From NCBI GenBank assembly GCA_016927905.1, contig JAFGLW010000004.1, positions 1-64,000 on the forward strand: a stretch of DNA of 64,000 nt, given 5' to 3'. Source of the stretch: a candidate division CSSED10-310 bacterium (GTDB taxonomy: Bacteria; CSSED10-310; JAFGJC01). This document shows, piece after piece, positions 806-57,400 of the stretch. Positions within the stretch are counted from its first letter, which is position 1. Each line of letters begins with the position of its first letter. The notes below the pieces were generated by a model. It ran no database searches, was not told where the DNA came from, and saw only the letters and a list, made by a program, of their open reading frames with translations. Made by a program: the position numbers and the translations under genes.

Positions 806-855
806 AACCGGTCCGTCATTACCCTTCTCCGTCCGGGAAATCCATTTTCTTTCAT
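806..855. repeat. Direct repeat copy 1 (aaccggtc[cgtc]attacccttctccgtccgggaaatccattttctttcat), left flank of the MazEF cassette.
   Basis: Near-identical to 2052-2098. Copy 1 carries a 4-nt insertion (cgtc) and one SNP. Confidence 0.8.
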
Positions 856-1069
856 CAGACTGCCTTGGCTGGAAGATTCCCACAGTACCGACCCGGTCAC
901 GGAGGGCCGGGTCACAAGAATGTGCTCTTTCAAAGGGAAAATGCCGGCAGAGACGCCTGCCTTCGCATTCTTTGGGTTTCTTAAACGAAGAAGCACAACT
1001 CATCGGAGCCGGGGGAACCTTCCCGATCATGCTCTACATAGGCATTTTTCAACTCGGAAAGACACCTGA

Positions 1070-1113
1070 AAACCCTCCCCCCGAAAGCGGCCGCTTTCGC
1101 CCGGGGAGGGTTT
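1070..1113. promoter_or_regulatory. Long GC-rich inverted repeat. An 18-bp perfect palindrome cgaaagcggccgctttcg is flanked by aaaccctcccc / ggggagggttt arms. Candidate operator or terminator stem-loop upstream of mazE.
   Basis: Perfect palindrome at 1082-1099. The outer arms at 1070-1080 and 1103-1113 are exact reverse complements. Confidence 0.5.
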
Positions 1114-1279
1114 GGGTGGGGGAGGCTTTGCGAAAAAATATAGAGACACCTTACATATCTCTGCGTAAGTCAGGACAGGATCGGGTGCCGGGAATGCAAT
1201 CGGCGAACCAAGCGTAAGCAAGGGTCTGACCTCTTTTTGCAGGAACAACGCTTGACAGAAATCCGGGGTGTGATTACAT

Positions 1280-1285
1280 TATAAT
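1280..1285 (+). promoter_or_regulatory. Candidate -10 hexamer TATAAT upstream of mazE. A TTGACA is present at 1252-1257, but 22 nt away.
   Basis: tataat at 1280-1285. RBS ggaggg at 1291-1296, followed by ATG 1304. Confidence 0.3.
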
Positions 1286-1303
1286 TACATGGAGGGTTTT
1301 GAC

Positions 1304-1561
1304 ATGAAGACTCGGATTGTCAAGATAGGTAATTCACAGGGCATTCGGATCCCGAAACCTATTTTGGACCAAACCGGTTTAAAAGAGGAAGTTGAGATTT
1401 CGATCGAGAATGATGCCCTGGTCATCCGTTCTCTCACCAGGGCGCGATCCGGATGGGATCAAATCTTCGCTGAAATGCGGGAGTGCGGAGATGACAACAT
1501 GCTGGATTCGATGGATGAACTGGATAATGAATTCGATGAGAAAGATTGGGAATGGAAGTAA
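1304..1561 (+). CDS. mazE: MazE/AbrB/SpoVT-family antitoxin.
   Basis: MKTRIVKIGNSQGIRIPKPILDQTGL... is the swapped-hairpin AbrB/MazE N-terminus. The C-terminal tail is acidic. It overlaps the downstream toxin gene by 16 nt. The track ORF starts at 1289; ATG 1304 has the better RBS. Confidence 0.75.
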   Translation: MKTRIVKIGNSQGIRIPKPILDQTGLKEEVEISIENDALVIRSLTRARSGWDQIFAEMRECGDDNMLDSMDELDNEFDEKDWEWK

Positions 1562-1875
1562 ATCGTTTCGATGTGTTTCTGGTGAATCTTGATCCGACCG
1601 TCGGGAGTGAGATACGGAAATCAAGACCATGCGTCATTATCTCACCCGATGAAATGAACCGGAATATCAGAACGGTGATCATCGCACCCATGACGACGAA
1701 AGGTCGAAATTATCCGACTCGTGTCAAAATCCGTTTTTCCGGAAAAACCGGGCAGGTTGTGCTTGACCAGATTCGAACCGTCGATAAATCAAGACTGGCA
1801 AAACATTTGGGGAGACTCAATCCCGGCCAGTGCGAAACGGTATTGGGAATTTTGCAGGAAATGTTTGCACCATAA
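1546..1875 (+). CDS. mazF: MazF/PemK-family mRNA interferase toxin.
   Basis: NRFDVFLVNLDPTVGSEIRKSRPCVIISPDEMN...VIIAPMTTKGRNYPTRVKI is the MazF/PemK/CcdB-fold signature. It is about 110 aa and is coupled to mazE. Confidence 0.8.
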   Translation: MGMEVNRFDVFLVNLDPTVGSEIRKSRPCVIISPDEMNRNIRTVIIAPMTTKGRNYPTRVKIRFSGKTGQVVLDQIRTVDKSRLAKHLGRLNPGQCETVLGILQEMFAP

Positions 1876-2050
1876 TGGAGTCGAACCTGCGCGCTCCCGG
1901 GGACTGTCCGGGGACACGTTCCGCTTCTCGGGCCGGGTGACTCCCGGCCCTGCGACTTCCGGAACATGTCCCCGCCGGTGACTATGGAGTGGCTGGTGGG
2001 TTTACCAGCACCCGGCACCTAGCCGACTGACAATCAGCGGTCGCATCCTC
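1876..2050 (-). other. Truncated tRNA-like structured-RNA fragment. The minus strand ends in ...GCGCGCAGGTTCGACTCCA, a T-arm that is cut in its 3' stem exactly at the mazF stop.
   Basis: The minus-strand sequence contains a T-loop consensus GGTTCGACTCC and several nested GC hairpins (ggccgggtgactcccggcc, gctggtaaacccaccagc). There is no 3' T-stem or acceptor strand, because the mazF coding sequence begins at that point. Confidence 0.35.
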
Positions 2051-2051
2051 G

Positions 2052-2098
2052 AACCGGTCATTACCCTTCTCCGTCCGGGAAATTCATTTTCTTTACAT
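2052..2098. repeat. Direct repeat copy 2, right flank of the MazEF plus tRNA-like segment.
   Basis: aaccggtcattacccttctccgtccgggaaattcattttctttacat matches 806-855. Confidence 0.8.
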
Positions 2099-2129
2099 AA
2101 CGAGTACGGGAAGGATACAATCAAAAGCA

Positions 2130-2444
2130 ATGAAGACGATTGAAATGATGGAAAAACACGTCGACAAGATCGTCGATCTCTGCAAACGGTTCAACGTGAG
2201 ACAGCTGGACCTGTTCGGATCCGCCAGCCGGGGGGGGTTCAGCCTGGAACAAAGCGATCTGGACTTCTTTGTCGAATTCAACTCGATGCCGCCGTCGGAA
2301 CACGCCGATTGCTATTTCAGGATGCTGGAAGCCCTGGAAGACATGTTTTCCCGTTCCATCGATCTGGTGGAAACCACCGCGGTGAAAAATCCTTATTTTT
2401 CAAAAATTGCCGAACAATCCCGAACAACCCTGTATGCGGCCTGA
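2130..2444 (+). CDS. mntA: MntA-type minimal nucleotidyltransferase, the antitoxin of a HepT/MntA module.
   Basis: LFGSASRGGFSLEQSDLDFFVEF contains the GSxxRG...DxD Pol-beta-type nucleotidyltransferase motif. It is about 104 aa and is coupled to a downstream HEPN gene. Confidence 0.8.
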   Translation: MKTIEMMEKHVDKIVDLCKRFNVRQLDLFGSASRGGFSLEQSDLDFFVEFNSMPPSEHADCYFRMLEALEDMFSRSIDLVETTAVKNPYFSKIAEQSRTTLYAA

Positions 2445-2700
2445 AATCAAAAAACTGCTGTATGATATCCACCGGGCAGCGGAGAATATAGTTGCATTTA
2501 CCGAAGGCGGAACCCTGGATGATTATCTGGACAACGCGCTCCTACGGTCCGGCGTGGAACACCAGTTTGAAATCATCGGTGAGGCTTTGAATCAGGCAGT
2601 CCGAATGGATTCTTCGCTGACGCCTGCACTGAGCACAGCCGAAGTGCTCGCAATGACTGGTGTCAGGGGGCACCGTGCAGAGCGGATAAAAATCGGATAA
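2434..2700 (+). CDS. hepT: HepT-like HEPN-domain toxin (DUF86).
   Basis: It overlaps the mntA stop (ATG 2434, TGA 2442-2444). It has an Rx4H HEPN motif (RSGVEH) and is about 88 aa. Confidence 0.7.
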   Translation: MRPEIKKLLYDIHRAAENIVAFTEGGTLDDYLDNALLRSGVEHQFEIIGEALNQAVRMDSSLTPALSTAEVLAMTGVRGHRAERIKIG

Positions 2701-2710
2701 TATCCGCCGC

Positions 2711-4855
2711 ATGGACCGTTTCCGCACGTCATACCGGCATCTGGTTCCCGTAATTGTGTTCTTCTGCGTCCTGCAGATCCTGCTGTTTGCGCCGCGGCTG
2801 AATTCCGACGGCGCCTACTATTTCGAATTCGTTCGTTCCCTGGTCATCCAGAACGACCTGAATTTCGATGACGAACGGGAGTTTTTCACCTGGGAATGGG
2901 TGCCCGTATTCCGCAACTATCTGCCGGGCGACTGGGACAATACCGGATATCCGCCCAACATCTTTTCCTTCGGTCCCGCCGCCGCCTGGCTGCCGGTCTA
3001 CCTTCTTGTTCACTGGTTCGTGCTGCTGGCGAACCATCTCGGGGCTTCGTTTTCGACGAACGGCTACAGCCTGTTGTACCGGTTTTTCCCCCTGCTTATG
3101 TCGCTGTTGTGCGGCCTGGCGGCCCTGTTCGCGATCGACCGGCTGGGGCGGGATGCCGGCTACCGGCCGCCGGACCGGGCGGCAGGACTTTTTCTGATGC
3201 TCGGGGCGTCCCACTGGCCCGCATTCATTTTCGTCACGCCGGCGTTTTCCCATTCCCTGAGCGTGCTGACGGTTTCGATATTTCTTCTGGCCTGGTACCG
3301 GTCTCGCGACGCCGGCTGGAACGGGAAGGGGTATGCCCTGTACGGCGTGCTGGGCGGTCTGGCCGTTCTGGCCAGATGGCAGAACCTGTTCTGCCTGGTT
3401 CTGCCGCTTCTGGATGCCGCAACCTCCCTCGTGTTTTCTCCAGACCGGCGCTCGTTTTTCCGGCGCTTTTTTCGCTGGACCATCTTCAGTGCAGCCCTAT
3501 TACTGACTGTATCCCCCCAGTTGATCGCCACATGGATCCTGTATGGCACGCCCGTCACCGATCCGCAGGGTGAAGGCGGCATGCTCTGGATGTCCCCCCG
3601 GATCCGGTTGATCCTGTTCGAGGGAATCAAGGGATTGTTCACCGTCAACCCGATCCTGCTGGTCGCCACATTGCTGATCCCGCTGATTTTCCGGAAAAAT
3701 CTCCGGCTGGGATGGGGATTGACCGTTCTGTTTGTCATCCAGCTTTATATCAACGCCGTCCGGCGGGACTGGGCCGGCGTGGGATTCGGCATGCGCCGCT
3801 TTTTGAATCTCGTGCCGGTGTTCGCCCTGGGTCTGACGGCGGGTTTCGATTGGCTCCGGACCCGGAGGCGGAAATTTGTCATCGGTTTATGCTGGACCGC
3901 CGGGATTGCCGCGATCGTCTGGAACCTTCTGTTGATGGCGCAATACTATTATTCCGAACTGGGCGCGCCCTGGACGACGTTCCCGCCGTCCGCCATGATC
4001 CGGAACCAGTTCACGGAAGCTCCCGCCCTGCTGGCAAAACTGGTCGGATCCGGCCTGTTCGCATCGGGTCTGCACGGCGATGCCGCCCATCTGATTCTCG
4101 CGGTCGCCGGGTTACTGCTAACCACCCTGATTATCGCCGTTTTCGTCCGTTTGCGACCGGCTGAACCGGCTCTCGACCGGTTATTTCGGCGTCTTCTGTC
4201 CGTCGCCGTGCTGTGGATCGCGGTTCTCGACGGGTGGCTGCTTCTGAGTGCCGGATCGGCGACGATGTTTCATGCGATTGAATTGCTGCCGGGACCACAT
4301 TTCGGAAGGCCGCGGCTGCTGAGGTTGAATGACGCTTCGGGATATCTGGGATTCCCCGGCGGCCTGGTGTTCGGCCCCGGGCCGCGGTTGTGCGTGATGG
4401 ATGTCCGGGCGGAGTATGTCCGGGACCAGTTCCTGGCGCTGGGACGTCTCGCTGTCGAACCGCACCGACCCTGCCGGAACGAAGCTCTCTGGCGATGCGA
4501 ATTTGCTGGACAATTCGACGCCCGCAGCCTGATACTCATCTCCAGGATCCCATCCGGGCCGGTTCCCGCCGGAACGGAGATCGCCGAAATCTCCGTGACC
4601 GATTCGACCGATCGCCGTCATGCATTCCCCGTACGGGCCGGATATGAAACCGGTTCCGGTATTGACAGCATGCGTTCATCCACAACCGACCGGTTGGTTC
4701 GGGACTATCCTGCCGTGAACCGGATGACGACAAACAATACCGCCGATTATCGCGTGACGTTCGATTGGAAGACATCCGTTTCAGTGCGTACACTGGAGAT
4801 CGCATTCCGCGGATATCCGGTCGTCTGGGAAATTCACGGCCTGGCGTTTCGATGA
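2711..4855 (+). CDS. Polytopic membrane protein, putative GT-C superfamily glycosyltransferase (ArnT/PMT-like), with a ~230-aa C-terminal soluble domain.
   Basis: There are about 12 predicted TM helices. NFDDEREFFTW in the first periplasmic loop resembles the DE motif of ArnT/PMT (GT39/GT83). Confidence 0.5.
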   Translation: MDRFRTSYRHLVPVIVFFCVLQILLFAPRLNSDGAYYFEFVRSLVIQNDLNFDDEREFFTWEWVPVFRNYLPGDWDNTGYPPNIFSFGPAAAWLPVYLLVHWFVLLANHLGASFSTNGYSLLYRFFPLLMSLLCGLAALFAIDRLGRDAGYRPPDRAAGLFLMLGASHWPAFIFVTPAFSHSLSVLTVSIFLLAWYRSRDAGWNGKGYALYGVLGGLAVLARWQNLFCLVLPLLDAATSLVFSPDRRSFFRRFFRWTIFSAALLLTVSPQLIATWILYGTPVTDPQGEGGMLWMSPRIRLILFEGIKGLFTVNPILLVATLLIPLIFRKNLRLGWGLTVLFVIQLYINAVRRDWAGVGFGMRRFLNLVPVFALGLTAGFDWLRTRRRKFVIGLCWTAGIAAIVWNLLLMAQYYYSELGAPWTTFPPSAMIRNQFTEAPALLAKLVGSGLFASGLHGDAAHLILAVAGLLLTTLIIAVFVRLRPAEPALDRLFRRLLSVAVLWIAVLDGWLLLSAGSATMFHAIELLPGPHFGRPRLLRLNDASGYLGFPGGLVFGPGPRLCVMDVRAEYVRDQFLALGRLAVEPHRPCRNEALWRCEFAGQFDARSLILISRIPSGPVPAGTEIAEISVTDSTDRRHAFPVRAGYETGSGIDSMRSSTTDRLVRDYPAVNRMTTNNTADYRVTFDWKTSVSVRTLEIAFRGYPVVWEIHGLAFR

Positions 4856-13416: not shown

Positions 13417-14331
13417 ATGAAACAGGACGACGGTTATTTTAACACCAGACTGAGTTATGAACCCAGGCGGGACGTTGTCTGGAAAGCGATCGTTGAATAC
13501 CTGCAACGGTTTGTCCCGAACGACGCCCGGATTCTTGAGCTGGGTGCCGGTTACTGCTCCTTCATCAACCAGATCAAGGCTTCCGAAAAACACGCCCTTG
13601 ACATCTCCGCCATCACCCGGAAACATGCCGGAACCGATGTCAAAGTCTCCATTCAAAACTGCACGAATCTGGGTTCCTACCGGTCGAACATGTTCGACGC
13701 CGTTTTCTCCAGTTTCCTTTTCGAACATCTCTCCCGCGAAGATCTGGACCGGGTGATGAACCAGTTGAGGCGGATCATCCGGACCGGGGGTGTCCTGATC
13801 ACGATGTTACCCAACTACAAATATATCAGCCGGCACTATTTCGACGATTACACGCATCTCCAGGTGTTTTCCCATATCAGTTTCACCGATTATCTTTCTT
13901 CCCGGGGATTCGAACCGACCGAAGTGCAGGGTCGTTTCATCCCCTATACTTTCAAATCGAGACTTCCCAAATCCGCTTTTCTCACCCGAATCTATCTGCA
14001 TCTTCCCTGGCGCCCGTTCGCCGGCAATATGCTCGTGATCGCCCGCAACCCGGAATACAAGCCGTCTCAGCCGACCCGGCAGACATTCCGCAGGCATGTG
14101 GAAAGCCCGGCCGACCCGATCGCTCCCGCATCCATTCTCAAGGATGGACAACCGGATCCGAGCAGGATCCGGCGGTTTACGCCCAAACCGGACAAAAATG
14201 CGCCGTCTCAACCTGAGGGAAGAGACCGGCCCGGGCAGCATCAGGCCGCTCGATCCCGGCCTCGGTACAAACCCAATCGATCCCGCAATCCCCGGAAAAG
14301 AGCTTCCGGGAACCTGGATCCCGGAGAATAA
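13417..14331 (+). CDS. Class I SAM-dependent methyltransferase with a ~95-aa Arg/Pro-rich C-terminal extension.
   Basis: ILELGAGYCSF (GxGxG motif I). The MTase fold ends near residue 210, and a low-complexity basic tail follows up to stop 14331. The start lies 3 nt after the rSAM stop. Confidence 0.7.
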   Translation: MKQDDGYFNTRLSYEPRRDVVWKAIVEYLQRFVPNDARILELGAGYCSFINQIKASEKHALDISAITRKHAGTDVKVSIQNCTNLGSYRSNMFDAVFSSFLFEHLSREDLDRVMNQLRRIIRTGGVLITMLPNYKYISRHYFDDYTHLQVFSHISFTDYLSSRGFEPTEVQGRFIPYTFKSRLPKSAFLTRIYLHLPWRPFAGNMLVIARNPEYKPSQPTRQTFRRHVESPADPIAPASILKDGQPDPSRIRRFTPKPDKNAPSQPEGRDRPGQHQAARSRPRYKPNRSRNPRKRASGNLDPGE

Positions 14332-20229: not shown

Positions 20230-23200
20230 ATGATGGGTCATATTTGGATTCGATGGATTGCGTTGACGGTCTGTTGCCTGACCGCAGGACCGGTTCTGGC
20301 CGGTCAGGTCGGGGATCATCGCGCGGCTTATCAACGGGCTGTAGACGAAGCCTGCCAGGGCAGGACGGACGGATTGGCGATATACGTATCCGGCGATCCT
20401 CTGCCTGCGGGAGAGGAAATCAAAACCTGGAAGGGAATATTCCTGACTCTGGATACGGCGCAATGGCTGGTTTTTATCGATGAACATCCCGGCGCCAACT
20501 GGGAACATTCCTGCCGGTTTGTCCTGGTGGATCCCGGAACGGGAGTGGTCCGGATGACCCGGGGTACCCGGCCGCCGGAATGTCTGGGAGACATGATTCA
20601 CATGTCCGGTCCCGATATTCTCGGAGGAGAAAACGTGCGGCCCACTCTGAAATCCGCCCGGTCCCCGGCTGCACCCGCCGGCCGGTCGGTCGAGCATCTC
20701 TGGGCGGTGATTCTTTCGGGGGGAGCATCCCAGTACTCCAACTATCCCCGGTACTGGAACGACTGCTCCAGCATCTATACGACGCTGGTGAACGTATACG
20801 GGTACCTGGACGAAAACATTATCGTGGCTATTTCCGACGGAACCGATCCGGCCCCGGACCAGAGTAACGGGGGAAATTCCAATCCGGATCTGGACGGCGA
20901 CGGCGATGACGACATTATGTTCTCCTGTATCAAGACCAATCTGGACATTATTTTCGCCGATCTGGCAACCAACCTGACATCTCAGGATTCGCTGTTCATT
21001 TTCACCACCGATCACGGAAACGGCCAGCTTGGCGTACCGGGTCAACCGACCTCGATGAACCTGTGGAACGGGGAAGAAATCTGGGATTATGAATTCGCCG
21101 CCCTGATGGAGCCCATTCAATGCCGGGAATTCAATGTGGTGCTGGAACCCTGTTTTTCCGGTGGATTCGTCAATGACATCATCGAGATGAACTCGTCTGT
21201 TCCCCGGTCGGTGTCATCCGCGGCGAATGATCATGAATATTCATGGGCCATGGGTCCCGATTATATTTACGACACCTATGTGTTTCACTGGACGGCGGCG
21301 GTAACGGGAGAAGACGCTTTCGGGAATCCCGTAGACGCCGATACCAACATGGACGGCATCGTGGACATGTATGAAGCGTATGTTTACGCCGAGTTCATGG
21401 ATGACGATGACGAGCATCCCCAGTATGACGACTGGCCGGAGGGGTACGGTTCCACAACCAGTCTGTGGGGATCGGGACCGAATTCAGAGGGTGAAGTCAA
21501 GCTCGACCGAACGCTTTACAACTGTGACGATACCATCGAAATCACCGTGGAAGATCTCGATCTGGAAGGCCAAGGTACGCTGACCATCACCATCGATTCG
21601 ACTACCGAACCCGGCGGTGAATCCGTGATTTTGACCGAAACGGATACCGCGCATTTTGAAGGAACGATCGCCACGGGCACCGGGACCTCTTCACCCGACG
21701 GCATTCTCCAGGTCGATCACGGGGATTTCGTCACCGCAACCTATGAAGACGACAATTACGGCGGCCAGGGCCCCATGACACTTACCGATCAGTCGACCGT
21801 CGACTGCCTGGCTCCCGTCATTTCCAATGTCCATACCGACGATATGACCTATCAATCCGCTACGGTTTACTGGACCACCGACGAACCCGCAACGTCCCGC
21901 GTGGAATACGGAATCGACATGGGGCTGGGGACCGTGGTGGAATCGACCGAACCGGTGACCGACCATGCCGTCCTGATCACCGGGCTGGATGACTGCACAA
22001 CCTATTACTTCAAAGTGCTGTCCACCGACCAGGCCGGTAACCAGGCCGAAGACGATAACGGCGGTCTCATGTATTCCTTCCAGACCTGGGAAGTCGTCTA
22101 CCAGTTGAACGAAACCTTGGACTCCAATCCCGGATGGACCATATCGGGAGGTCAGTGGGCGTTCGGCCAGCCGACGGGCGGCGGCGGGGCCTACGGCGGT
22201 CCGGATCCCACCGGAGGATATACCGGCACCAACGTTTATGGCTACAACCTCAACGGCGATTACGCCAACAACATACCCGAATACAACCTGACCACCACCG
22301 TCATCGACTGTTCCGACGCCGAAGGCGTCATCTTTGGATTCCGGCGGTGGCTGGGCGTGGAACGTAATTTTTACGATCACGCCGCTGTCAGGATTTCCAC
22401 CGACGGATCCACCTGGACGACGATCTGGGCGAACCCGGATGCGGAAACGGCCGATACCGCCTGGGTCTATCAGGAATTCGACGTGTCGGCCTATGCCGAT
22501 CACCAGAGCACCGTCTATTTTCGGTGGGTGATGGGAACGACCGATGGCGGATGGACCTATTGCGGCTGGAATATCGACGATGTCATCGTGTACTACTCCA
22601 ATCCCTGCGGAGAACCGACGTCGACACCGCCGGCAACCTGCACACCGACCACGGTCCCCACCGGCACACCGCCGCCGGCCACCCATACACCGGCTCCCCC
22701 CACCCATACACCGGCTCCCCCCACCGACACACCGGCTCCCCCCACCGACACCCCGGTACCGCCAACCAACACGATGATTCCGACCAACACCCAGATTCCC
22801 ACATACACGTCCATGCCGCCGACCGACACCCCGGCCCCGCCGACCGACACACCGGTGCCGCCCACGGAGACGCCTTCCTTTGAAAAGGGGATGGTGCTCA
22901 TGCTGGATGATACGGACCTGACAGCGGGAGACCGGTTTTATCTGCACATGAACCTGAATAATCCCGAACCGGAAGCGTACCAGGCTGATGCGTACGTGCT
23001 GCTGGGTATATGGGGTGATTACTGGTTCTGGCCCAGCTGGATACATATGAGCCAGGGATTGGATTCACAAACGTACAGCATCCCCTCCGGAACCACACCC
23101 AAAGATCTTCTCGACTTCACATGGCCCGGCAATGTGGGACAGGCGGGCAATCTCGAATTCATCGGCTGCCTGTTCCGGCCCGGAAGCTGGAATATGATCG

Positions 23201-40500: not shown

Positions 40501-42404
40501 ATGTGGTCATATCCAATGCCGTTCCCTGCAACCAGTCGATTCTGACCTACCAGAGCCACGTCATCGACGACTCCGCCGGAAACGGTGACGGGGAGATCAA
40601 CGGGGGTGAAACCATCGCCCTGTCGGTGACGCTGCAGAATATCGGCCTGGAGGCCACCGGGGTGGAAGCGGTGCTCAGTACCACCAATCCACACGTGACC
40701 ATCACGGTGAGTCACGCCGAATTTCCGGATATTCCCCAGAGCGGCGTTGGAACTTCCCTGACCGATTACGTGTTCGAGGTGAGCGAAGACGTTTCGGACG
40801 GCGAAGTGATCCCGTTCGAGCTGTCCTGGACCTGCACGGGCGCTTCCGGCCAGACCGGGTTTAACGATCTGATCGTCGCTCCGGGACTGGAATGGTATTC
40901 CTCGGTTGTTCTCGATCCCGTCGAAGGTGACGGAGACGGCGTCCTGGACCCGGGTGAAACCGCCCAGATCATGGTGACATTGTTCAACCGGGGACATGGA
41001 ACCGCTCACGATGTAATTGCCGATCTGACATCCAGCCACCCGCAGTACGTCACCATCGATGACGGCTCCGCGGATTTCCCGGATATGGAAGGTGAACGCT
41101 ATGGGACCAGCATTGCACCCCATTTTACGGTTACCGCCGATCCCGCCACACCCGATCACACCATCGTGACGTTCACTCTGGCCATCACGGGACAGAATTA
41201 TGCCACGGAGGATACTTTTGTTCTGGAAGTGACCGTATCGGATTTCATCTGCCGGTATGCCTGGGACCTGGACACCGATCCGGGCTGGACCTGTGAGAAT
41301 CAGTGGGCATGGGGCGTGCCGCTCGGACAGAGCGGCGATCCCACGTCGGGATACACCGGCGCCAACGTCTACGGATACAATCTGGCCGGGAACTACCCAC
41401 CCTTCCTTCCGGAAACATTTCTCACGTCGGAGGCCATCGACTGTTCCATGCTGAGCAGCGTGGAGGTGCGGTTCATGCGCTGGCTGGGGGTGGAAAGCGC
41501 ACAGTGGGATCATGCCTGTTTCCGGGTTTCCAACGACGGGTCGACCTGGTACACCATCTGGTCTCATACGGGCGAAACACTGCTCGACACCTCGTGGCAG
41601 AACATGTCGTACGACATTTCGGATTATGCCGACGGACAATCCGCCGTGTACCTGAGATGGGTCATGGGTGAATCGGATTCCTATGTTGAATATTTCGGCT
41701 GGAACCTGGACGATATCGAAATCTGGGCGGAAAGCGGCAATCCGGTGCCGACACACACGCCGGTGCCGCCCACGGCGACATCCATGCCGCCCACCGCAAC
41801 GCCGGTCATTCCCACCGCGACATCCATGCCGCCCACCGCAACGCCGGTCATTCCCACCGCGACATCGGCACCGCCCACGGATACACCCATTCCGCCGACC
41901 GATACACCCATTCCGCCGACCGATACACCCATTCCGCCGACCGATACTCCCGTTCCGCCGACCGATACTCCCGTTCCGCCGACTCACACGCCGGTGCCGC
42001 CCACCGCGACGCCGGTACCGCCGACCTCCACGCCGACGCCCGATCCCGGCATGACACTGATCATCGACGATGATTACCTGGAGCCCGGCGACATATTCCA
42101 TCTGCATTATTATCTTTACAATCCCGGGGTGGAAATGCGCACCCTGGATGCCTATATCCTGCTGGATGTCTACGGAGCGTACTGGTGTTATCCCGGATGG
42201 AATCACATCAGCATGGGACTGGATTACCTTCCCAACGTGCACATGAGTGCCGGGGCAACCATGCATGAGGACGTGTTCAGTTTCACCTGGGGCGACTACA
42301 ACGCCGGGGATTATCATGAGTTGTTCTTCTATGGGGCTGTGTTCGATGCGGGAACATTCGATATCTTCGGTGATTTCCAGATGATCGAGTGGGGATTCGA
42401 ATAG
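37578..42404 (+). CDS. Secreted gingipain-family (C25, clan CD) cysteine peptidase. Order: peptidase domain, beta-sandwich domain, FN3-like domain, 2x lectin-like domain, Pro/Thr linker, ~115-aa conserved C-terminal domain.
   Basis: It has a signal peptide ([29 protein letters not shown]). VNYAGHGS and VFADACSNS form the His/Cys dyad. The PT linker is at 41745-42050. The C-terminal domain aligns with that of the ORF at 20230. Confidence 0.8.
41745..42050 (+). repeat. Intragenic tandem repeats (24-bp units gaccgatacacccattccgccgacc x3-5 plus variants) encoding the PT linker.
   Basis: Exact reiteration is visible at 41881-42000. Confidence 0.75.
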
Positions 42405-54455: not shown

Positions 54456-57400
54456 TTACTTTATGGACGCGGCAGCCAGGTGGCGTTTGAGCTGCAGCAC
54501 CGTGACGTCCGGATCGACCATGAGCCGTTCCGGCTCGAAATCACACGCGATTAAAAGCTCCAAGGATTCCCCGGCACCCGGCCGGGCGGTGATGCGGGAT
54601 TCCCGGTACCCCGGAACGGATTCGCCGGTGTCGTCACTGAACCGTTTGCCTGCCGTTGCGGCGATATCCACCGATATCTCCCCGGTGCCGGCGTTGGTCA
54701 GTCGGAATCGAATCCACCATTTATCATCGCCCCGGTTCGATTCCACCGCGTCGATCCGGTATTCCGGCAGGGCTGTATCGAAGAAAAACTGCGCGACAAA
54801 CCGGTCGAATTCGCCGGAATCGGGCGCATACCTTTTTAAAAATTCGACGAAATCCTGAAGAGCGGGGTGGTCCGGTCCATCCCGGTAGGCCAGGATGAAA
54901 TCCCGGATCCCCGTCAGAGCGTTCTCCCGACCCATCAGATTCAACATCATCCAGTAAATCCATGCGGATCGGTTGTAGGTCACGGTGTTGTCCCCAGGCC
55001 GGCTCCCGTCCACCTTCACCAGAGGCCGCTCGGAATCCTTCTGCCGGTTTTCGCCGTAATCGTGTTCCAGCCGCCGGCAGAATTCCATCCGGGCGTAATC
55101 GCCTTTCACCTGATCAAACAGCAGTATCGACGAGAAATTGGCCATCCCCTCCAGAAAGACGTTCCCGCCGGGACCCTTGCCCGACATCAGGATGTTGGCC
55201 CACCATTGGTGCGCGATTTCGTGGGCGGCCACGAAAAACGCCACCTGAGTTCTGGGATCGTCTTTGGCCAGGAATCCCAGCGCTTCTGAAAACGTGATGT
55301 TGGTGGGAAATCCCTGGGCATAATAAGCCAGACCGGGAAACTCGCTGATCTTCAATTCACCCCAGGGATACGGCATGAACCAGTCGGAATAATATTTTCG
55401 CGCCGCGTCCATCGCCTGGCCGATCACCTCGACATTATAACCGTGACCGGGATGATAATACAGCGCCGTGCCGTCGCCTTTCCGGACATCCCAACGGCCG
55501 GCGACAATGTTGAAAAACCGGACCGGGCAATCGGTTATCCAATGATACACGGCCCGGTCGTTTTCAATACGGCGGTTCTTCAACATTCCCACGGAATTGG
55601 CTGTGTATTCAACGGGCAACTCGACCCGGATATCAGTTGTGAACGGCCGGTTCGGCCCGATGAACGGTCCGGTAATCCCCTCATAATAATCGTCCGGGTA
55701 TACCTTCGCATCATAACGGTTGTCTTCATCGATCCCGACTTCCTCATGAAATCCCAGATCCGGGACAAATTCCGGATTGAACGATGTCAGGACGACTCCC
55801 GACGGCAGAATGAATTCACGCGATCCCCCTCCGTTTCGGGTGATTCCCCCGGGCATGATTCCCTCATAAGTGAACCCCAGCAGGATCGTTTCGCCGGACG
55901 CCATCGCCTGCACCGGAGTGAATACATATAGGTTTGACCGGTTCTCCGGTTCATACGGTTTCCCGGCCAGCGTCCACGCCAGATTGCTCCAGTCCGGTCC
56001 GCCGGTCACCGGAAACCGGCGGAGCGGTTTATCGCTGGGATTGATCAGGCGATAAGTTCCGCTGACTGCAAAGCCTCTCGTTTCAGGATACAGCTCCACG
56101 TCCAGATCGACGTGGGCGATGTCCGGAACAGGGGTATCTTTCCAGGTCGCCAGGTTATGCCGCCAGTAGTCTTTTTCCGCCTTTTCCCGGACGCTGCCCT
56201 GAAATCCGGTCCCGACTTCGTGGAACAGGACGATCCCGGCAGCGAGCGGGATAATCATGAACGGGATCAGCGTTGCAGCCAGCCGCAGCAGAACCGGGAA
56301 TTGCAGCCGGTTCAACCGTCCGGAGGCATCCGGTGTTCGACGCTCGAACAGCTTGACGGCCAGGACGGTGAACAGAACCGCGAGCCCCAGAATCATTATG
56401 CGGTTCAGGACCAGAGCGTACCGGTCCATCTCCAGCACTCCCATGTCGCTCCATTGCAGCACCTTCCACAGATTCCAGTTGCCGACCCAGTTCATATGTC
56501 CCGTCGCCTGCCGGTACCCGGTGAAGATCAGAACCGACAGGCAGACGGCGTAAGTCGAATAGCGGTTGCGTGTTGCGGAATACACCACCATGGCGAATGC
56601 GGACCATGCGACGAAGGTGGGAAACAGCAGCAGGCCCCAGACAACCGCGAACGGTTTGATCTCAACCGGCACCCGACCCTGAACCAGGATCGCAGTGATA
56701 CCGACAACCAGAAATACCAGGACGATCAGGACACCGACCAGGCCGTTGGCGGCGGCTTTCCCGGACAGAACGGCGAAGTTGCCCACGGGAGAAGCTCGGT
56801 ATACCGGAGCCAGCCCGGTGGCTTTTTCCCTGCGGGCGGATTCGACCATGTAGAACATCAGAAGCAGGCAGACGGTCAGGGTCAGGGGTTCCATGGAATT
56901 GACTGCGAACAATCCGGATGTGGTCAGAAGCGGGGTATCCATCGGGCCGACCGACGTCATGGCATCGGAAAACGCGTTCAATAGGATGATCGGCACGAAC
57001 AGATACAGACCGGCACTGAATAGCAGCTCCCGGAGTTCGACCCGGACGATAGCGGGGAAAGTCTCAAAAAATGAAGGCGTACGGCCGGTCATTCCCAGTT
57101 CGCCCAGGGGGCGGTACGCCGCGGCCGGCTGAGTGGTCCGGATCGTCTCGGAGCCGTTATATCCCGGCGGGTTGCGCCTTTTCAGACTCCATGATTTCGA
57201 TCGCCTCAACACCCGGCCGAAATGAAACTGGCTGAGACCGATGGCGGCGAATCCCAGAACCGTGAACAGGATCCGATTGCCAATGATGATGCCGTCCATC
57301 GGCACCCGGGAATGGTTGTAAAATTGAGTGCCCTGATCGACCTTGATCCAGGTTTGAGACAACCACCGCAGACCAGCCGGATCGCTGAGCATCAACATTC

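Follow-up and report, generated by a model that had tools for sequence, protein, structure and literature searches.

How did a toxin-antitoxin (TA) cassette that carries no recombinase come to lie between two nearly identical direct repeats, immediately in front of a second TA module? The question is raised by a mazEF locus near the start of contig JAFGLW010000004.1, from a bacterium of CSSED10-310, a candidate phylum described from Zodletone Spring metagenome-assembled genomes (MAGs). The stretch analyzed here, called the window, comprises the first 64 kb of this contig, and positions count from its first letter. An initial annotation had presented the locus as a candidate mobile insertion or integration scar, with the cassette fused to a truncated tRNA-like element. 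We conclude that the locus is an ordinary insertion scar of a known kind, in which neither a tRNA nor a tmRNA gene has been broken and nothing indicates an island of the integrase type. As to its origin, we give about even chances to the idea that a foreign piece of 1.24 kb was inserted immediately upstream of the neighboring mntA promoter and duplicated about 45 bp of its target.

The direct repeats and the DNA between them

The repeat-bounded unit and the promoter that follows it are composed as follows (nt, nucleotides; aa, amino acids):

806–852, no strand: left copy of the direct repeat, 47 nt, with an extra CGTC at 814–817
853–1247, no strand: left spacer, non-coding and strongly structured, about 395 nt, with no homologue in any collection searched
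1248–1303, plus strand: predicted mazEF promoter and operator (promoter scan; left edge of the DNA homology with other mazEF modules)
1304–1561, plus strand: mazE antitoxin gene, 85 aa (PF04014, E 6e-9; NCBI MBN1355092.1)
1552–1875, plus strand: mazF toxin gene, 107 aa (PF02452, E 5e-32)
1876–1893, plus strand: conserved mazEF 3' flank, TGGAGTCGAACCTGCGCG; homology with loci L002, L003 and L004 runs to 1893 and stops there
1894–2051, no strand: right spacer, GC-rich and hairpin-rich, 158 nt, with no Rfam family and no homologue
2052–2094, no strand: right copy of the direct repeat, 43 nt, ending with the three bases that open the predicted mntA -35 hexamer
2092–2121, plus strand: predicted mntA promoter, with TTTACA at 2092–2097, an 18-nt spacer and TACAAT (promoter scan)

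The two repeat copies agree at 42 of 43 bases and differ in addition by a 4-nt indel (AACCGGTC[CGTC]ATTACCC); in the gapless core of 38 nt (815–852 versus 2057–2094), 37 positions are identical. A 27-mer taken from the repeat occurs exactly twice in the window, as against not once in 100 shuffles. The repeat is real and locally unique within the window, and the near-identical copies of about 45 bp that the initial annotation reported can be refined to 806–852 and 2052–2094. Whether the 45-mer is a genome-wide repeat was checked in the 64 kb of the window, which hold two copies. A 22-mer from the repeat had no matches in the genome_contigs and metagenome_contigs collections, which evidently do not contain the source genome. 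The repeat is non-coding and corresponds neither to a tRNA nor to the end of a coding sequence. It shows no internal dyad symmetry or tRNA-like sequence and has no potential to form a hairpin by itself. The substitution and the indel between the copies indicate some age of the duplication. A 21-nt similarity in the vicinity (778–798 and 1216–1236, GGTCTGACC) was judged to be at chance level.

Two explanations bear directly on the reality of the bracketing. The copies might be members of a dispersed family, similar to repetitive extragenic palindromic (REP) elements or miniature inverted-repeat transposable elements (MITEs), that flank the cassette by chance. The search for further copies reached the 64-kb window only, and the region has other repeats (a 50-bp array at 1–205), both of which leave room for such a family. 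However, only two copies exist in the 64 kb, both direct and within 1.3 kb of each other, the repeat lacks hairpin potential, and the public collections (evidently without the source genome) hold no match, so that we consider a dispersed family to have a low probability. Alternatively, the short-read metagenome assembly could have doubled the 45-mer by wrongly joining strain variants. The source is an NCBI MAG, with the proteins MBN1355092–96, and assemblies probably break at the tandem array near the window start, since the window begins inside it and a matching Logan contig begins at window position 148. An artefact is nevertheless very improbable: this Logan contig, a second assembly that presumably stems from the same sample as the MAG, shows the same repeat-cassette structure, the copies are not identical k-mers but are distinguished by a substitution and a 4-nt indel, and the same geometry is found in loci from several assemblies (with SPAdes-, MEGAHIT- and other-style contig labels).

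The mazE–mazF pair claimed for the cassette is real according to the Pfam matches. An AbrB/MazE-type antitoxin gene is followed in the same operon by a PemK/MazF toxin gene, and the end of mazE and the start of mazF overlap by 10 nt. On this basis the pair is classified as a type II MazEF toxin-antitoxin module, with RNase activity of the toxin and its neutralization by the antitoxin predicted. The predicted promoter is sigma-70-like (-35 TTGACA at 1252–1257, -10 TACATT at 1275–1280; promoter scan) and is followed by a Shine-Dalgarno sequence, GGAGG, at 1291–1295. Twin ATTACAT boxes at 1273–1279 and 1284–1290 have the look of an autoregulatory operator, and the layout TTGACA...ATGTAATTACA recurs at other mazEF loci. 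In domains, gene overlap and twin ATTACAT operator, the module is like chromosomal type II MazEF systems (PemK/MazF with AbrB-type MazE), with no notable difference.

DNA homology with five independent loci in other contexts sets the limits of the module at 1248/1251 and 1893. The left edge of the homology lies at 1248–1252 in L003, L005 and L006, and the portable mazEF module, from the promoter to 18 nt past the mazF stop codon, is thereby defined as 1248–1893. The closest modules (L002, with 91% MazF identity, and L003 and L004, with 86%) all lie in unrelated contexts. Among 8000 candidates scored, 7981 were MazF homologues at E<=1e-20. Many have 65–80% identity, and those with 65–78% come from cyanobacteria, Planctomycetota, Desulfobacterota, Chloroflexota, Nitrospirota, Acidobacteriota and others. 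The occurrence of similar MazF homologues across so many phyla speaks for wide exchange of the module. The motif AGTCGAAC(A/CT)GCGCG right after the mazF stop codon is kept in the closest modules (window 1876–1893, L002 447–464, L003 2870–2891), and L002 and L003 have about 90 nt of further 3' flank in common; the motif may serve as a terminator, mark a processing site or represent a recombination end. In L003, a tRNA-Ala gene, an aminoglycoside-phosphotransferase-like gene and two mazEF modules in tandem lie in this order (271–2869) and form a small TA islet by a tRNA gene.

The repeats do not coincide with the portable module, but bracket a larger unit of 1.24 kb (806–2094). The roughly 450 bp of non-coding DNA with a large palindrome that had been noted upstream of mazE do exist, as a stretch of 448 nt: 853–1303 contains no supported open reading frame (ORF), no Pfam match in any reading frame and no similarity to TA proteins, and a long palindrome at 1063–1118 has perfect 11-nt arms (1070–1080 and 1103–1113) and is flanked by A/T runs. 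With a T-run on either strand, it looks like a bidirectional terminator. The fold z-score of the left spacer is -3.8. In the right spacer, a 15-bp stem (1909–1923/1960–1974) encloses a GGGCCGGG/CCCGGCCC stem, and the fold z-scores are -3.9 for the plus strand and -2.9 for the minus strand; this stretch is probably donor-derived flanking DNA or a 3' untranslated structure. Neither spacer had a blastn match in 129 fetched loci, plasmids or phages, and a search for decayed TA or other gene remnants in 1–1300 and 1876–2130 (tblastn with four TA proteins; Pfam on six-frame fragments) found none.

The position of the right repeat copy and the structure of the left spacer suggest a further explanation, namely a local duplication. 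The 45-mer would then be an A/T-rich, UP-like or operator part of the mntA promoter, and its left copy would drive or regulate an unannotated transcript from about 855 to the palindrome at 1063–1118. The right copy does directly abut the predicted mntA -35 box, and the left copy is followed by a highly structured region of 250 nt that ends in a strong hairpin. However, the promoter scan found no good -35/-10 pair downstream of the left copy, and 853–1250 contains no RNA family or conserved ORF. Moreover, the model leaves unexplained why a foreign mazEF module is bracketed, in a geometry that recurs elsewhere. We therefore regard a local duplication as rather unlikely. The duplicated promoter-upstream element, the dispersed repeat family and the assembly artefact each fit fewer of the observations.

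The supposed tRNA remnant and the accessory surroundings

The initial annotation had read the locus as the footprint of integration at a tRNA gene, or of capture into a structured-RNA gene, in view of the flanking repeats and a tRNA-like fragment said to start at the mazF stop codon (1876–2050) and to have a T-stem that is cut on the minus strand. ARAGORN predicts no tRNA or tmRNA gene in the entire window. Rfam searches gave no matches at gathering thresholds, and with permissive filters (E<=10, positions 600–2300) the sole match was a chance one to eukaryotic pRNA (E 5.7). The T-loop-like motif GGTTCGACTCC is indeed present on the minus strand at 1877–1887, directly after the mazF stop codon, but its core (1879–1893) is the 3' flank of the mazEF module. 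Of the 11 bases of the motif, eight (plus strand AGTCGAAC), together with the GCGCG that follows, make up the conserved flank in L002, L003 and L004: TAATGG-AGTCGAAC-CTGCGCG in the window aligns with TGATCC-AGTCGAAC-ACGCGCG in these three loci, where the minus strand reads TGTTCGACTGG and is not T-loop-like. As the motif is conserved in the closest mazEF modules elsewhere, it belongs to the mazEF 3' flank. Read by eye, the minus strand around GGTTCGACTCC has a T-stem that is unable to close and no cloverleaf before the motif.

The model in which the cassette was captured into, or integrated at, a tRNA- or tmRNA-like gene, with 1876–2050 on the minus strand as its truncated remnant, thus has the presence of the motif in its favor, as well as the stable folding of the region and a loose resemblance, again by eye, of the minus strand at about 2063–2036 (GGGTAATGACCGGTTCGAGGATGCGA) to the 5' end of a tmRNA. 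Against it speak the ARAGORN and Rfam results, negative even at E<=10, the T-stem that cannot form, and the homology of the AGTCGAAC..GCGCG core to mazEF 3' flanks in other genomes. For a tmRNA, moreover, 185 nt without a tag reading frame do not fit. We regard the model as essentially refuted. No tRNA-like gene has been disrupted here, so that the footprint is neither one of integration into a tRNA gene nor one of capture into an RNA gene. There are two further matches to GGTTCGANTCC in the window, at 13906–13916 (minus strand) and 54734–54744 (plus strand), which brings the total to three, compared with 0.3 expected by chance; ARAGORN calls neither of them a tRNA.

Behind the right repeat copy lies the second TA module:

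2130–2444, plus strand: mntA-type nucleotidyltransferase antitoxin gene, 104 aa (PF01909, PF18765; PADLOC PDC-S09)
2434–2700, plus strand: hepT-type toxin gene, shortened, 88 aa (the Pfam match covers profile positions 1–68 of 120)

The initial annotation was right that an mntA/hepT module follows directly, but its hepT gene is truncated. An alignment shows that HepT lacks the catalytic RNxxxHxY region found in the intact homologues of 116–118 aa, and the hepT stop codon lies 10 nt before the start of a conserved gene for a protein of 714 aa (2711–4855). Where a complete MntA/HepT module would combine the antitoxin with a HEPN toxin that has the Rx4HxY motif, MntA is intact here and HepT is truncated. 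This older module is thus decaying while mntA stays intact, which makes the locus a decaying TA islet. The closest MntA relatives are only 53% identical, and because of this low identity the DNA upstream of mntA, and with it the question whether the right repeat is a part of the mntA locus, does not lend itself to comparison with relatives.

The neighboring 714-aa membrane protein has homologues with 51–55% amino acid identity at best. Its gene is kept in three relatives (L008, L010/L011 and L012), and in L010/L011 and L012, whose contigs extend past the gene, the gene order downstream of it is largely kept as well. Upstream of the gene, the relatives L008–L012 have other genes and no TA modules, and the same uninterrupted arrangement, as would be expected for an ancient fixed configuration, was not found in them. 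The GC content is 44–57% across positions 1–2700, compared with 52–65% (mostly 55–65%) downstream, so that the cassette region is lower in GC than the downstream DNA. The region is accessory DNA. The absence of TA modules from the relatives, the low GC content, the similar modules elsewhere and the recurrence of bracketing repeats (see below) support the proposal of a mobile insertion, in the form of a secondary insertion. The proposal had come with the advice to look for an integrase or recombinase upstream of the window start. The unit contains no recombinase, and the annotation of the 11.7 kb read around the unit lists no gene with a recombinase or transposase domain.

The window has several other features. 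Next to the 50-bp tandem repeat at 1–205 (4.1 copies, 97% identity), inside which the window begins, come partial copies in inverted orientation, which pair with the last unit in a long hairpin (151–330, z-score -5.8); a classification of the array as CRISPR was rejected, as it has no spacers, and an antitoxin array like those of type III TA systems is a candidate reading. Low-GC DNA without supported genes follows the array. Pfam and PADLOC give no match for two small overlapping ORFs of 63 and 80 aa (374–768) that precede the left repeat; they may be genes or a single frameshifted gene. Farther away, arrays of 21-nt units rich in CCGAC/CCCAC (22636–22874 and 41748–42055) most likely code for Pro/Thr-rich repeats in two large proteins. 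The 90%-identity cluster of the 714-aa protein includes five Logan proteins of 39 aa, which were considered as strain variants and rejected because their sequences look unrelated; their presence is probably a database clustering artefact.

Bracketing repeats at other mazEF and MntA loci

At 83 loci, three of which were dropped as artefacts, sequence upstream of mazE was compared with sequence downstream of mazF, at most 1.3 kb on each side, and we counted the modules bracketed by plus/plus repeats of 30 nt or more; 247 positions of identical geometry served as controls. Such repeats were found at 14 of the 80 remaining mazEF loci, from many phyla (L066, L067, L072, L078, L092, L099, L109, L115, L116, L117, L120, L127, L128 and L130), compared with 6 of the 247 control positions. 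Five of the six control matches come from a single pair of tandem paralogues. The repeats at the 14 loci are 34–334 nt long and 85–97% identical, and lie about 0.3–1.3 kb to either side of mazEF, which itself is at roughly 1750–2320 of each locus. The distal copy usually begins 6–35 nt past the mazF stop codon and the proximal copy usually ends 50–180 nt before mazE, in agreement with the module limits found by homology.

For 8 of the 14 loci, the repeats could be traced to the terminal 34–334 nt of adjacent host genes. These genes code for an AlaDH/PNT protein, a B12-radical S-adenosylmethionine protein, an OmpR-type regulator, a major facilitator superfamily transporter, RelA/SpoT, an epimerase next to a SpoU methylase, and HolA (gene holA); in the remaining case, the repeat is the start of an unannotated ORF that appears helix-turn-helix (HTH)-like when its translation is read. 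Base-by-base checks of five upstream genes place the repeat end at the stop codon or a few nucleotides beyond. Bracketing repeats are recurrent and non-random in this mazEF family, with no shared site. Two ideas about these loci did not hold up: the long repeats, considered as attC sites, proved to be fragments of neighboring genes, and upstream ORFs of 400–500 aa, which had been considered under the idea of IS200/IS605 (TnpB) passengers, turned out to be housekeeping genes according to Pfam.

At two loci, the differences between the copies are mostly synonymous. In L099 they are distributed over codon positions 1, 2 and 3 as 1/1/11, with 10 synonymous codon changes and 1 non-synonymous change; in L092 the distribution is 1/2/14, with 12 synonymous and 4 non-synonymous changes. 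Taken together, 25 of 30 differences are at third codon positions, and the distal fragment keeps both frame and stop codon. In situ decay of a dead copy would give about 45% third-position differences by our own estimate. The third-position excess suggests that one copy at L099 and L092 is foreign, that is, that it came from another lineage and traveled with the module. The codon-position pattern at the other loci is mixed.

Bracketing repeats are not confined to mazEF, since about 6 of 39 fetched MntA loci have them as well. Direct repeats of 26–105 nt occur at the MntA(-HepT) metagenome loci L020/L021, L034, L037, L040 and L024; examples are 285–387 versus 936–1040 in L020, and 1957–1995 versus 2929–2967 in L040, where the proximal copy lies directly upstream of mntA, like the right copy in the window. 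A different kind of repeat is seen in L116, from a Nitrospirota MAG, where elements of about 100 nt with inverted ends (GGAATGACACCCGTGC...GCACGGGTCCCATTCC; 287–412, 415–495 and 2708–2834) are repeated around the mazEF module and HTH-like ORFs. These elements may be REP- or MITE-like.

The survey also bears on the idea of an att scar, according to which the 45-mers are the attL and attR sites of a small non-autonomous element that depends on a tyrosine or serine recombinase whose gene lies elsewhere, perhaps upstream of the window start. Near-identical direct repeats do bracket accessory DNA, the window starts only 800 nt upstream and so leaves room for a nearby recombinase, and the tandem mazEF modules of L003 lie about 1.2 kb from a tRNA-Ala gene. 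However, no recombinase is found in the unit or the 11.7 kb around it, and the repeat has neither dyad symmetry nor tRNA-like sequence. The bracketing repeats elsewhere vary in length and sequence and, in the cases examined, consist of the ends of different host genes, which argues against one dedicated site. We consider an att scar unlikely, though it retains some weight. Genomic islands at the 3' ends of tRNA, tmRNA or protein genes have direct repeats flanking accessory DNA as well, in the form of attL and attR sites that restore the end of the gene, and at other mazEF loci the repeat likewise is the 3' end of a gene. In contrast to such islands, the mazEF units are only 0.75–1.7 kb long, have no integrase, diverse targets and variable repeat lengths, and the repeat in the window is not a gene end of this kind.

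The reading of the unit as an integron cassette with attC sites was considered and rejected. The TA cassettes of sedentary chromosomal integrons or of CALINs (clusters of attC sites lacking integron integrases) are likewise small, promoter-bearing modules in series, in the same orientation and separated by repeats. Unlike them, the unit has no attC architecture, and the repeats examined at other loci come from the ends of host genes. Inverse R''/R' cores are absent, and the two TCGAACC boxes (1881–1887 and 2049–2055) are in direct rather than inverted orientation. Inspection of both strands of 1876–2100, done without a dedicated model, revealed no RYYYAAC...GTTRRRY pair and no bulged hairpin of 60–140 nt. 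Among the genes called in the 11.7 kb around the unit, none has an intI or integrase domain, and the repeat, with two copies in the 64 kb, does not form an array.

A proposed insertion with target duplication

Insertion with long target duplication has been described for restriction-modification (RM) gene complexes (Nobusato et al., 2000; Furuta et al., 2010; PMC2853133; also PMC3874152). The class is characterized by a long and variable duplication (around 100 bp) and by the absence of mobility genes, and the target gene survives because a translation start or stop often lies within the repeats (PMC2853133). The unit in the window is similar in being a small, addictive two-gene module between repeats of more than 30 bp, with no transposase, integrase or terminal inverted repeats. 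In terms of the definition given by Furuta et al. (2010), both genes are enclosed by direct repeats of 43 and 47 nt (definition: more than 30 bp), and the insert of 1.24 kb (definition: below 20 kb) has no other mobility gene. The right copy ends in the predicted mntA -35 hexamer, which fits the remark that repeats span gene starts and stops (PMC2853133). There are also two differences. The cargo is a type II TA pair with an RNase toxin, and empty sites, which were the defining evidence of the RM studies, do not form part of the assignment of the window. The RM authors suspected DNA breakage by the restriction enzyme as the driver (PMC2853133); as MazF is an RNase, DNA breakage by the cargo is not the driver here. 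In the searchable literature, whose coverage is incomplete, we found no description of such insertions for TA modules.

From these observations we infer a target duplication, an order of events and a recombination route. In the starting state, the mntA-hepT module would already have been present upstream of the conserved 714-aa gene. A fragment of 1.24 kb, consisting of a mazEF module and its former surroundings, would then have inserted just upstream of the mntA -35 box. Its cargo would have been the self-contained module at 1248–1893, which comprises promoter and operator, mazE, mazF and a 3' flank of about 18 nt, along with two non-coding stretches of about 395 and 158 nt. The event would have duplicated about 45 bp of target sequence, giving 806–852 at the left edge of the insert and 2052–2094, which still lies against the mntA -35 box. 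Because the right copy still abuts this box, the mntA promoter was left whole. As long as HepT was active, the cell would not have survived silencing of the antitoxin by an insertion; the 3' part of hepT would have been lost later. The route was likely host recombination, either by a single crossover of a circularized fragment that shared a homologous stretch (the 45-mer) or by joining of incoming linear DNA with the help of homology or microhomology. An addictive toxin-antitoxin pair would favor retention of the insert.

Several points weigh against this history. No empty site was found, the closest relatives being 51–55% identical at the protein level. The repeat is non-coding, so that the codon-position test used at other loci is inapplicable. 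The unit is larger than most, since elsewhere the distal repeat begins 6–35 nt past the stop codon, and about 550 nt of non-coding DNA inside it are unexplained. A recombinase could lie upstream of the window start, and a dispersed repeat family could exist elsewhere in the genome. Finally, the sequence is from a short-read metagenome assembly, and the matching Logan contig presumably represents the same sample.

A broader model is possible, which we put forward tentatively and with less confidence than insertion with target duplication at the locus itself. Minimal mazEF modules, from the promoter to about 20 nt past the stop codon, may be mobile units across phyla that insert by gene termini, with target duplications that are long and variable, and sometimes with one xenologous copy. 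A xenologous gene-end copy would mean that the module travels with a piece of a gene of its previous host and integrates by homology. The 45-bp repeat in the window would be one such event, beside the promoter of another TA module.

For the locus itself, the main result is a correction: what had been taken for a cassette in a broken RNA gene is a small TA cassette within a TA islet that is decaying, in a bacterium of the rare candidate phylum CSSED10-310. The pattern seen beyond this locus is a lead, not a proven finding. A widespread mazEF family is often bracketed by long direct repeats that consist of the ends of neighboring genes, the footprint that Kobayashi's group described for RM systems, and the pattern among mazEF loci is worth a proper comparative study. 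If true, the broader model would extend the RM-type insertion life cycle to RNase TA pairs and make the mechanism independent of DNA cleavage by the cargo. If borne out by empty sites, it would provide a concrete and testable route for the spread of TA modules that have no recombinase, namely host recombination combined with addiction, rather than a DNA break made by the cargo.

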